Assembly (NCBI RefSeq): GCF_016026235.1
Contig: NZ_CP065613.1
Direction: 5' to 3' (one strand)
DNA from: Escherichia coli
GTDB lineage: Bacteria > Pseudomonadota > Gammaproteobacteria > Enterobacterales > Enterobacteriaceae
DNA length: 64,000 nucleotides
A model generated the notes under the pieces. The model was not told where the DNA came from. It saw nothing but the letters and a program-made list of their open reading frames with translations, and made no database searches. Below are positions 48,500-51,031 of the stretch, one piece after another; position 1 is the stretch's first letter; the number at the start of each line of letters is the position of its first letter. The translations under genes were made by a program, and so were the position numbers.

Positions 48500-48528
48500 T
48501 GCCCGGCGATATACACCGGGCATTGTAA

Positions 48529-49479
48529 TCAGTAAGTCTCCGCAGGAGGGATGCCAAAGTCAGGCATCCCACTTTCATCCCAGCGAATCAATTTTAAGCG
48601 CGTATGGCGATTAGGATCGTACAGTGGATCGCCTTCTATTTCGGTGTAATTACGTGCGTGGTAGACCAGCACATCCTCACCCTCGGGCGTTTGGGTAAAA
48701 CTGTTATGTCTGGGGCCATACTGGCGATTTTCATAGCTGGTCGAAAAGACCGGACGCGGCGATTTATGCCAGTTCTCAGGCACTCTCGGGTCAGCGTCGA
48801 TGTCTATCCACAATAACCCCATGCAGTAGTTCTCGTCGGTAGCGCTGGCTGAGTAGCTGATGAATAACCGCTCGCCATGCATCACGACAGCCGGACCTTC
48901 ATTGACCCAGAATCCGCGACATTCCCAGTCATACTCCGGTTTGCTCAACATCACCGGCTCGCCTTTGATCGTCCACGGATTTTCCATTTCGGCCAGGTAA
49001 ATATTGGAGTTCCCGGCGATATCCGGTGCTTTTTGCGCCCACAAATACCACTGTTTACCCTGATGGTGAAAAGTGGTGGCATCCAGGGCAAAAGTATCAA
49101 ATGGTGTTTTAACTTGTCCTTTTTCAATCCACGTTCCGCTGAGCGGATCGGCATCACAACATTCAAGGGCAAACATCCGGTGCTGAAACATCCCCAGTTT
49201 GTCGAGCGCCTGAGTATGGGTGGCGGCAAAATAGATATACCACCGACCTGCAATATGATGCAGCTCCGGCGCCCAGATAAGTTCGCTCATGGGGCCGCTT
49301 TGCGGTTTACGCCACACCACGACAGGCGTGGCGCTGCGCAGCCCGACGAGCGAGTCTGCCCGGCGAATTTCCAGCCGGTCGTACTCCGGCACCGAGGCGA
49401 TAAAATAATAGTGGTTGCCATCGCGCAGTATAAAGGGATCGGCGCGTTGCTCGATAAATGGATTCGGCCAGTCTTGCAT
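48529..49479 (-). CDS. Glycoside hydrolase, GH43-like (beta-xylosidase/alpha-L-arabinofuranosidase-type); strain-variable islet gene
   Basis: 316-aa ORF, MQDWPNPFIEQRADPFILRDGNHYYFIASVPEYDRLEIRRADSL...; N-terminal catalytic Asp context (ADPFIL..DG..YY) resembles five-bladed beta-propeller GH43 enzymes. Family assignment is by eye. Confidence 0.6.
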   Translation of the reverse strand: MQDWPNPFIEQRADPFILRDGNHYYFIASVPEYDRLEIRRADSLVGLRSATPVVVWRKPQSGPMSELIWAPELHHIAGRWYIYFAATHTQALDKLGMFQHRMFALECCDADPLSGTWIEKGQVKTPFDTFALDATTFHHQGKQWYLWAQKAPDIAGNSNIYLAEMENPWTIKGEPVMLSKPEYDWECRGFWVNEGPAVVMHGERLFISYSASATDENYCMGLLWIDIDADPRVPENWHKSPRPVFSTSYENRQYGPRHNSFTQTPEGEDVLVYHARNYTEIEGDPLYDPNRHTRLKLIRWDESGMPDFGIPPAETY

Positions 49480-50873
49480 TAGGCTTTCCTTACTGTTTCT
49501 ACAGCGTTTATTTCCTGATAGTCATTCAGTTCGCGGTAATTGGTGCGACGTTTTTCCAGATCGGTCTGGATGCGTTTCATCAGTTCGCGGTCTACTTTCA
49601 GTAGGCGGACGACGCCTGCGGTAATCAGATAGCCCACCCCAGGAATGACGGTAAAGAGCAGTACAATACCGTTAATCGCCGTGGCGCTTTGGGCTTTCGC
49701 ACCGGCATCGTAGCCGTACCATGAGAGCAGAAAGCCCACCATCGCCCCGGCAATGGCCAGGCCCAGTTTGAGGAAGAAAAGGTTACCGGAGAAGCTGATG
49801 CCGGTGATGCGTTTACCGGTTTTCCATTCGCCGTAGTCGTCGACGTCTGCCATCAGCGACCAGTGCAGCGGGGAGGGGATCTGGTGCAGAATGTTGAGCA
49901 CCACAATCATCACCGTGGCGTGCGGATTAAAGAAATAAAAGGCGCAGGAGAAAATTGCCAGCGCGATGTTGGTCCAGAAAAAGACTTTCAGTTTGCACCA
50001 GCGGTCGGTTAACACTTTCGCCAACATACTGCCGATCATCATTCCGACAACGCCGAGGCTAATAAAGAGGGTTGCAAACTGAGTACTCTCACCCATTACC
50101 CAGGTGACATAGTACATGGTTGCCGCCATGCGGATAAATCCAGGGCAGACGTTGCACAAGGTGAGCAGCAGAATGCGCACCCACTGATCGTTTTTCCAGA
50201 CATCTTTAAAATCGTTCTTCATGTCGTCATGGGTTTGTACCGCCGGGCGAATGCGCTCACGAACCGTGGCGAAACAGAACAAAAACATACACATACCGAT
50301 GATTGCCAGCACGGTCATAGCCAGCTGATACCCTTTCGCTTTGTCGCCGCCGCCAAATAGATCCACCATCGGCAATAGCGTCAGCGAGAGCAGAAGGGTA
50401 GCGATGCCCACCATCACAAAACGGTACGACTGGCAGGCCACGCGCTCTTGTGGGTCATTAGTAATCACGCCACCTAACGAGCAGTAAGGAATGTTAATGG
50501 CGGTATAGGTCAGGGAGAGCAGGAAATAGGTAACAAAGGCATAGATAACCTTGCTGCTATAGCTCCATTCTGGCGTGGTAAACATCAGGATGCTGAATAG
50601 CGCGTAGGGGAAGGCAATCCACAATAGCCAGGGACGAAAACGACCATATTTGCTTTGGGTGCGGTCGGCAATGGCCCCCATAATAGGGTCAGTGACGGCA
50701 TCGATAACCCGTACAGAGAGCAGTAATACGCCAACGAGTGCCGGGGCCAGACCAAAAATATCCGTATAAAAATAGTTAACAAACAGCATGATAGCGCCAA
50801 AGATGATGTTGCATCCTGCGTCGCCCATCCCGTAGCCGATCTTTTCTCTTACTGATAATTTACTGCTATTCAT
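49479..50873 (-). CDS. Glycoside-pentoside-hexuronide (GPH) family cation symporter (MelB/YagG/YicJ-like)
   Basis: 464-aa polytopic membrane ORF, MNSSKLSVREKIGYGMGDAGCNIIFGAIMLFVNYFYTDIFGLAPALVGVLLLSVRVIDAVTDPIMGAIADRT...; the GPH signature region (G.GD....D.) is recognisable; stop overlaps the downstream hydrolase start. Confidence 0.7.
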   Translation of the reverse strand: MNSSKLSVREKIGYGMGDAGCNIIFGAIMLFVNYFYTDIFGLAPALVGVLLLSVRVIDAVTDPIMGAIADRTQSKYGRFRPWLLWIAFPYALFSILMFTTPEWSYSSKVIYAFVTYFLLSLTYTAINIPYCSLGGVITNDPQERVACQSYRFVMVGIATLLLSLTLLPMVDLFGGGDKAKGYQLAMTVLAIIGMCMFLFCFATVRERIRPAVQTHDDMKNDFKDVWKNDQWVRILLLTLCNVCPGFIRMAATMYYVTWVMGESTQFATLFISLGVVGMMIGSMLAKVLTDRWCKLKVFFWTNIALAIFSCAFYFFNPHATVMIVVLNILHQIPSPLHWSLMADVDDYGEWKTGKRITGISFSGNLFFLKLGLAIAGAMVGFLLSWYGYDAGAKAQSATAINGIVLLFTVIPGVGYLITAGVVRLLKVDRELMKRIQTDLEKRRTNYRELNDYQEINAVETVRKA

Positions 50874-51031
50874 AGAGAAGACTCCCCATCAAGTGATGAG
50901 GATAATTATTCGCTCGCTATGGATAAATTGCGTTGCAGGATAACGCCGCTGATATGGATAAAATCGCTTTGCACGGAAAAGTGTGAGGCAGGTAACAACC
51001 CTCACCCTGTACGGGTGAGGGCGTAGAGAGA

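Follow-up and report, generated by a model that had tools for sequence, protein, structure and literature searches.

The closest described relative of the element reported here is a pair of Salmonella enterica genes, STM0148 and STM0149 (STM14_0177 and STM14_0178), which encode an arabinofuranosidase and a transporter. We analyzed an orthologous hydrolase–symporter gene pair that lies between ampE and aroP in a 64-kb window of Escherichia coli DNA (the window being the whole stretch analyzed, 64,000 nucleotides of contig NZ_CP065613.1). The Salmonella genes occupy the same ampE–aroP position, with the same gene order and orientation. We take araT to be the name of the transporter gene (the STM14_0178 orthologue), and a chromatin immunoprecipitation sequencing study of AraC by Stringer and colleagues in 2014 is said to have placed the pair, araT and araU, in the conserved AraC regulon.

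The product of STM0148 is an alpha-N-arabinofuranosidase, uncharacterized before the work that showed it to be needed for diet-arabinose-dependent gut expansion; its loss lowers gut fitness only when dietary arabinose polymers are supplied, and the mutant phenotype is rescued by free arabinose (PMC10016319). STM14_0177 and STM14_0178 have both been described as “dramatically induced” by L-arabinose (PMC11834461). Another paper calls STM14_0177 araU, a name that it attributes to Stringer et al. 2014 (PMC8341724). In Salmonella subsp. diarizonae and arizonae, the enzyme is ~86% and the symporter ~91% identical in amino acid sequence to the window proteins, and the conserved promoter blocks (CRP, I1, I2, and −10) recur in the Salmonella loci. 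The pair is common in Salmonella but rare in E. coli. The E. coli locus also differs in having an extra copy of TTATCCATA in its promoter spacer, and the lineage represented by the window differs further by a G257R substitution in the hydrolase and a four-residue deletion in the symporter.

A second set of relatives is formed by characterized enzymes of GH43 subfamily 26 (GH43_26). SaAraf43A (3AKF) and AtAbf43C (9NXG/9NXJ) belong to this subfamily, and mutagenesis of AtAbf43C has confirmed the role of its Asp/Asp/Glu triad (PMC12493170). WAraf43 and LbAraf43 are intracellular, have no signal peptide, and cleave alpha-1,5-linked oligosaccharides of two to three units but not arabinoxylo-oligosaccharides (PMC7125115). 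The window hydrolase aligns over its full length with all four and, like them, has a five-bladed-propeller catalytic domain with an Asp/Asp/Glu triad, present here as a single domain of ~316 amino acids. It resembles LbAraf43 and WAraf43 in lacking both a signal peptide and a carbohydrate-binding module, whereas SaAraf43A and AtAbf43C are secreted enzymes with a CBM42 module. The lactic-acid-bacterium genes differ from the window pair in belonging to other operons, which include different permeases and a repressor.

In E. coli K-12, too, GPH cation symporters are encoded beside cytoplasmic glycosidases, namely in the YicJ–YicI, YagG–YagH, UidB–UidA, and MelB–MelA pairs. The window locus differs from these in that its symporter scores under every equivalog cutoff and in its enzyme family or subfamily and its regulator. 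The upstream region can be compared with PBAD, in which the CRP site, araI1, araI2/−35, −10, and CCATA start region are ordered and, to within 1 nt, spaced as they are in the window. The window promoter differs from PBAD in that neither upstream araO2/araO1 looping sites nor a divergent araC gene could be identified there, its −10 hexamer is nearer consensus (AATAAT versus TACTGT), and its I2 is weakly conserved.

Taken together, the window pair is very probably the E. coli orthologue of the enterobacterial araT–araU-type operon for short alpha-1,5-linked arabino-oligosaccharides. It is a real feature that belongs to a system already known, and is not a new kind of system. What is added here is the PBAD-like anatomy of its promoter, the reading of the K-12 junction as an ancestral deletion, a caveat to the published model arising from the cytoplasmic enzyme, and two lineage-specific lesions.

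The gene pair between ampE and aroP

The interval between the end of ampE (48499) and the end of aroP (51032, minus strand) is 2,532 bp long and contains two minus-strand open reading frames:

49479–50873, minus strand: GPH-family glycoside:cation symporter, araT/STM14_0178-type, first gene of the operon (464 amino acids; TIGR00792, MFS_2)
48529–49479, minus strand: predicted GH43 subfamily-26-type exo-alpha-L-arabinofuranosidase, araU/STM0148 orthologue (316 amino acids; Pfam)

An earlier model-made description of this DNA (hereafter the sequence-only reading) had proposed a GPH symporter paired with a GH43 hydrolase, and this pairing is borne out, with both proteins scoring above their profile cutoffs and the two genes co-oriented and translationally coupled. 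The four-base ATGA overlap that it described is absent. Rather, the junction reads TAATG on the coding strand, wherein the symporter stop TAA and the hydrolase start ATG have one base in common (the A at 49479).

The hydrolase matches PF04616 (Glyco_hydro_43) with 263.7 bits against a cutoff of 32.2, and the match covers profile positions 2 to 288 of 288. This is not the confident assignment to a non-glycosidase family that had been named as the outcome telling against the proposed enzyme. The closest structures are those of LbAraf43 (5M8B), WAraf43 (5M8E), a Clostridium GH43 protein (3K1U), AtAbf43C (9NXJ/9NXG), and SaAraf43A (3AKF). The six closest distinct Protein Data Bank sequences align over their full length with E values from 4e-126 to 4e-103, and the following match has an E value of 8.5e-15. 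Characterized homologues are ~60% identical to the hydrolase, and the catalytic triad is present as D14 (RADPF), D133 (ALDAT), and E194 (NEGPA); the motifs around these residues are shared, exactly or almost exactly, with 5M8B and 5M8E. Judged by its closest relatives, the protein is a predicted member of the GH43 subfamily 26 exo-alpha-1,5-L-arabinofuranosidases. The earlier statement that the substrate is unknown was too pessimistic, given that the close GH43_26 homologues and the published Salmonella orthologues point to arabinofuranosides. The N-terminus of the hydrolase is MQDWPNPFIEQRADPF, with the catalytic Asp at residue 14 and no hydrophobic or twin-arginine leader. Because there is no leader sequence, a cytoplasmic location is almost certain.

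The symporter scores 417 bits against TIGR00792 (GPH; cutoff 231) and 320 bits against Pfam MFS_2, and it aligns over its full length to MelB structures (E value of 8e-48), all as expected of a GPH family member with the twelve-helix MFS_2 architecture. It scores below the NCBIfam equivalog or subfamily cutoffs for PRK11462 (484 versus 836), YagG (475 versus 610), the glucuronide transporter (288 versus 528), and MelB (251 versus 456). We classify it as a predicted distinct orthologue group among GPH transporters. A search of Rfam with positions 48300 to 51300 returned no RNA family.

A predicted PBAD-like promoter precedes the symporter gene

Conservation of the promoter was assessed by aligning 72 orthologous upstream regions. 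The elements recognized in the window and in the resulting consensus are as follows:

50982–50997, minus strand: CRP-like site TGTTACCTGCCTCACA; TGTTA and TCACA at least 95% conserved; inferred center at about −92.5
50953–50969, minus strand: araI1-like AraC half-site AAGCGATTTTATCCATA, containing the distal repeat; 14/17 match to araI1; inferred position −72 to −56
50932–50951, minus strand: araI2-like region CAGCGGCGTTATCCTGCAAC, overlapping the −35 region; CTGC.ACGC core at least 85% conserved; aligns with PBAD TAGCGGATCCTACCTGACGC
50918–50934, minus strand: proximal repeat copy AACGCAATTTATCCATA (coding strand); similar to an AraC half-site in its B-box part only
50905–50910, minus strand: −10 hexamer AATAAT; at least 95% conserved in the 72 regions; aligns with PBAD TACTGT
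50882–50887, minus strand: Shine-Dalgarno sequence GGGGAG, 8 nt upstream of the symporter ATG; GGAG conserved in the 72 regions
Consensus, coding strand: CRP-like site TGTTAcCTgccTCACA; both arms at least 95% conserved
Consensus, coding strand: araI1-like half-site tAGCcaTTTtaTCCATA; 15/17 match to araI1; TCCATA at least 95% conserved
Consensus, coding strand: I2-like core CTGCaACGCA; at least 85% conserved
Consensus, coding strand: start region tctCCATA; partly conserved, with CCA at least 85%

In an alignment with K-12 PBAD, these elements occur in the same order, and between the CRP site and the −10 box their spacing differs by no more than 1 nt. The CRP-like site aligns with that of PBAD, followed by CACTTT. 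Collinearity with PBAD places the transcription start at about 50897, and by the same counting the CRP center lies at −92.5, compared with −93.5 in PBAD. The sequence TGTTA-CCTGCC-TCACA has 9 of the 10 core bases of TGTGA-N6-TCACA and by sequence qualifies as a CRP site. Likewise, the 72-region consensus TAGCCATTTTATCCATA agrees with araI1 at 15 of 17 positions and has the form of an araI1-type half-site (TAGC-N7-TCCATA), wherein TCCATA is the part conserved in at least 95%. The upstream region is a putative PBAD-like promoter with predicted AraC and CRP sites.

Copies of ATGGATAAA are found at 50919–50927 and 50954–50962, 35 bp apart, and the sequence-only reading had suggested that two direct repeats in this region could be a regulator-binding site. 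That suggestion holds for the distal copy, which is the conserved araI1-like core (B-box), but not for the proximal copy. The latter sits in the non-conserved −35/−10 spacer; intact versions of it are confined to E. coli and Escherichia sp. E1V33, and the E. whittamii version is degenerate. Note that the 64-kb window holds four copies of ATGGATAAA where 0.69 are expected, a number reached in 1 of 100 shuffles. The repeat count alone is weak evidence, and the significance comes from the cross-species conservation of one copy. The second TTATCCATA copy (50918–50934), located in the promoter spacer, may provide AraC with an additional and perhaps repressive contact, or it may have arisen by chance duplication. 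We also considered TTATCCATA as a DnaA box but abandoned this reading, since the match to araI1 and PBAD extends over the full 17-mer and its context.

A proposed route for arabino-oligosaccharide use

In the route that we propose, the GPH symporter would import arabinosides of arabinobiose or arabinotriose size together with a cation. The cytoplasmic GH43_26 enzyme would then trim terminal alpha-1,5-L-arabinofuranose, to judge from the ~60%-identical characterized enzymes and the intact D14, D133, and E194. The freed L-arabinose would feed AraBAD and activate AraC, and AraC with cyclic AMP–CRP would in turn drive the operon from the PBAD-like promoter, whose sites are predicted by conservation and for which induction is published for the Salmonella orthologues only.

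Several points weigh against this interpretation. The experiments appear to concern the Salmonella orthologues only, and the substrate of the symporter seems in every species to have been deduced. In published models, the Salmonella enzyme frees arabinose from polysaccharides (PMC10016319 and the pan-genome paper), which is not easily squared with a cytoplasmic enzyme. The I2 half-site is weak and its register ambiguous (18 or 21 bp): the best araI2 match (CAGCGG...CCTGC) is at an 18-bp offset from I1 and the 21-bp register matches poorly, with the 3′ core being conserved. A consensus promoter scan did not call the inferred promoter, and its counts were no higher than those for shuffled sequences, although such a scan is uninformative for a promoter of the activator-dependent kind predicted here. 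Finally, the effect of the G257R substitution is uncertain because the neighboring His is dispensable in AtAbf43C, where mutation of the residue beside the G257-equivalent position did not reduce activity (PMC12493170). Oligosaccharide scavenging fits the sequence better than lumenal release of arabinose from polysaccharides.

Two lesions in the lineage represented by the window

The sequence-only reading overlooked two changes within the pair:

48709–48711, minus strand: codon 257 AGA (Arg) in place of Gly in the GPGH motif of the hydrolase (G257R); GGA in FDAARGOS_943
49890–49900, minus strand: 12-bp in-frame deletion in the symporter gene, with GAGCAGGAAGTA lost between GAGCA direct repeats and the junction after 49895; from alignment to FDAARGOS_943

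The position of residue 257 is Gly in 81 of 81 relatives. The deletion shortens the symporter to 464 amino acids, compared with 468 in other E. coli carriers, by removing YFLL, of which L/Y/L are conserved in 73–74 of 76 orthologues. These residues belong to a hydrophobic segment whose counterpart in the MelB alignment is the tenth-helix region, and the hydropathy segment at 312–339 drops below threshold in this lineage. Both changes are absent from all 53 complete-genome carriers. The exact variants (P0002 for the hydrolase and P0016 for the symporter) co-occur on 25 public contigs, so they represent a genuine lineage rather than an artifact of sequencing. E. coli MB56 (NZ_CP073936.1, hit H69), which is among the 53 carriers, has its symporter gene interrupted by the IS3-family insertion sequence ISSen4, a further hint of decay of the pair in E. 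coli.

The module may be weakened or inactive in this lineage, on the evidence of these changes. Opinion is evenly divided, in our assessment, on the stronger proposition that the operon here is a decaying remnant that contributes nothing. The substitution of an otherwise invariant Gly, the loss of conserved L/Y/L residues from a transmembrane segment along with its hydropathy call, the joint occurrence of both changes on 25 contigs, and the ISSen4 insertion in MB56 all favor it. Yet both reading frames are open, the promoter is intact, a shortened helix is no proof of inactivity, and the His adjacent to the affected Gly is dispensable in AtAbf43C. Together, the lesions, the ISSen4 insertion, and the species-wide loss of the pair suggest relaxed selection on it in E. 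coli.

Distribution and origin of the pair

The segment is present in 53 of 5,426 complete E. coli genomes, each of which has a single, chromosomal copy. This carriage of ~1%, along with the empty junction of E. coli B, in which ampE and aroP are 42 bp apart, agrees with the earlier claim that the pair is absent from K-12-type E. coli, and it speaks against the pair being core at this position throughout the species. Alignment of filled and empty sites shows that the variable segment extends from 48500, directly after the ampE stop, to about 50998, and that the empty site holds the 9 bp AGATTATTG in its place. A hairpin is found at either edge:

48501–48521, no strand assigned: hairpin GCCCGG-CGATATACA-CCGGGC, located where the ampE and GH43 genes converge (by sequence inspection; missing from the empty site)
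50999–51021, no strand assigned: aroP terminator hairpin CCCTCACCC-GTACA-GGGTGAGGG, identical in E. coli B

The aroP hairpin, which strains with and without the pair have in common, sets the right-hand limit of the variable segment. The hairpin at 48501–48521 may terminate transcription in both directions; because it lacks a T-run, it was not called by a consensus terminator scan.

For the wider comparison, one genome per species was scanned and the loci of the best 80 of 348 hydrolase relatives were kept. The order ampD–ampE, GH43–GPH, aroP is retained in 79 of these best 80 loci, in some of which aroP lies beyond the fetched sequence. Genera that share this synteny include Citrobacter, Salmonella, Enterobacter, Klebsiella, Kluyvera, Kosakonia, Raoultella, and Leclercia, and the gene order of S. 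Typhimurium is the same as in the window. Hydrolase orthologues in the loci of the 80 species are 81–93% identical. At the nucleotide level, the pair is ~90% identical to that of E. whittamii and 77–83% identical to those of Citrobacter and Salmonella, in parallel with the flanking core genes. The GC content of the segment (0.49–0.53) is similar to that of its flanks. At the segment boundaries, we found no terminal inverted or direct repeats other than short chance matches, and no integrase, insertion sequence element, transposase gene, or att-like repeat. A mobile element was ruled out by the boundary repeat search.

The features expected of a horizontally acquired islet (deviant composition, mobility genes or repeats, and a taxon-variable site) are therefore lacking. 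The pair had been presented as an islet, a description that must be abandoned in view of its fixed position across the Enterobacteriaceae, host-like GC content, and freedom from marks of mobile elements. The comparison of ampE–aroP junctions that the sequence-only reading recommended thus upheld the rarity of the pair in E. coli but not its status as an insertion, the position being ancestral. We take the pair to be ancestral at the ampE–aroP position in Enterobacteriaceae and to have been deleted from ~99% of E. coli. The K-12 arrangement is read as a derived deletion because the same order is found in 79 of the best 80 loci and because the identity of the pair tracks that of core genes.

An alternative that we consider unlikely, though it deserves a hearing, is that E. 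coli gained the pair recently by homologous recombination from another Escherichia lineage and did not retain an ancestral segment. Such a gain would accord with the presence of the pair in ~1% of genomes, with the 99.3% identity of the pair in Escherichia sp. E1V33 as against the divergent ampE (91.5%) and nadC (93.6%) of that strain, and with a linked aroP allele ~2.6% diverged from typical E. coli. Standing against it are the identical position across the family, a divergence from E. whittamii, Citrobacter, and Salmonella that parallels flanking core genes, and host-like GC content with no integrase, insertion sequence element, or att-like repeats at the segment. In either case, the ultimate origin would be vertical within the Enterobacteriaceae, and the question is limited to the route within E. 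coli.

The E1V33 locus (L003, 3595–5948 plus flanks) is a mosaic, and a pair 99.3% identical next to an ampE of 91.5% identity indicates recent recombinational exchange of the segment between Escherichia lineages. In the window, aroP and its upstream region (51032–52900) are at least 99% identical to those of only 29 complete genomes and ~97.4% identical to those of typical E. coli. Unlike this linked region, the window ampE is 99.4% identical to that of E. coli B, and the contrast points to either a haplotype block or a breakpoint of recombination inside the segment. The aroP allele was considered as a test for a single carrier clade and set aside, since the rare linked haplotype that it revealed is compatible with retention and re-import alike. 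Given the E1V33 exchange and the aroP haplotype, an old polymorphism may have been kept in E. coli, or the pair may have been re-imported through homologous recombination.

Outside the Enterobacteriaceae, Gallibacterium salpingitidis (Pasteurellaceae; L080, 3594–10919) carries the same pair, with 86% and 81% amino acid identity, away from an ampE–aroP context. There, its neighbors are an araC-family regulator gene and araA, araD, and araB homologues, and mannitol phosphotransferase system genes lie upstream. This occurrence looks like a cross-family transfer, and the ara-gene neighborhood ties the pair to arabinose metabolism beyond its enterobacterial context.

Location and substrate of the enzyme

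The origin of the gene pair is separate from the matter of where its enzyme acts. It has been proposed for Salmonella that arabinose is set free from dietary polymers, and one might accordingly suppose that the enzyme is extracellular, that it acts on dietary arabinan or arabinoxylan, that the arabinose is taken up by AraE, and that the symporter is unrelated to the substrate of the enzyme. The STM0148 mutant phenotype, which requires dietary arabinose polymers and is rescued by free arabinose (PMC10016319), lends itself to this interpretation, and the pan-genome paper reads the enzyme as raising local arabinose concentrations. We nevertheless consider it improbable. The N-terminus, with its catalytic Asp at residue 14, has no hydrophobic or twin-arginine leader, the hydrolase start codon overlaps the symporter stop, and the closest characterized homologues are intracellular enzymes that use only substrates of two to three units (PMC7125115). 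Moreover, the in vivo data are equally compatible with import of oligosaccharides derived from other gut microbes. A module for xylosides or other pentosides, consisting of a beta-xylosidase and a xylo-oligosaccharide symporter as in YagG/YagH-type pairs, can be given very little credence: some database names do read “GH43 family beta-xylosidase” and the best NCBIfam matches of the symporter are the PRK11462 and YagG models, but these scores are far under their cutoffs, the promoter has araI1- and CRP-type sites, the Gallibacterium copy is within an ara cluster, and the Salmonella genes are arabinose-induced.

Implications of the proposed symporter-dependent arabinoside use

The preferred assignment to an araT–araU-type operon would replace the generic annotations “GH43 protein” and “GPH symporter” with a specific arabino-oligosaccharide role tied to AraC, and it would make the K-12 ampE–aroP junction the deletion scar of an ancestral enterobacterial operon. 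The cytoplasmic location of the enzyme suggests that the model in which a pathogen liberates arabinose from polysaccharide needs an added transporter step. Because the Salmonella orthologue affects gut expansion on plant-fiber diets, the ~1% of E. coli that keep the pair may differ in diet-dependent colonization.

These considerations can be combined into a broader picture, which we offer tentatively and with slightly more doubt than confidence. The arabinofuranosidase would be strictly cytoplasmic and dependent on the co-transcribed symporter. Salmonella and the rare E. coli carriers would not free arabinose from polymers on their own; instead, other gut microbes would release alpha-1,5-arabinobiose and arabinotriose, which these bacteria would scavenge with a self-amplifying AraC loop. 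The near-complete loss of the operon from E. coli would then reflect a real niche difference from Salmonella, Citrobacter, and Klebsiella, and the lineage represented by the window would be midway through that loss.

The neighboring aroP–pdhR interval

The interval between aroP and pdhR has a low GC content of 0.35–0.40 from 52983–54764 (plus strand) on to about 57000. The reading frame at 52983–54764 (plus strand) encodes a 593-amino acid type VI secretion system Hcp (TssD) protein fused to Pyocin_S and colicin/pyocin DNase domains, and in the matching RefSeq genome several bacteriocin-immunity genes follow the Hcp-fusion gene. Unlike the GH43–GPH pair, this segment is a true foreign islet, made up of an Hcp-effector toxin and an array of immunity genes.

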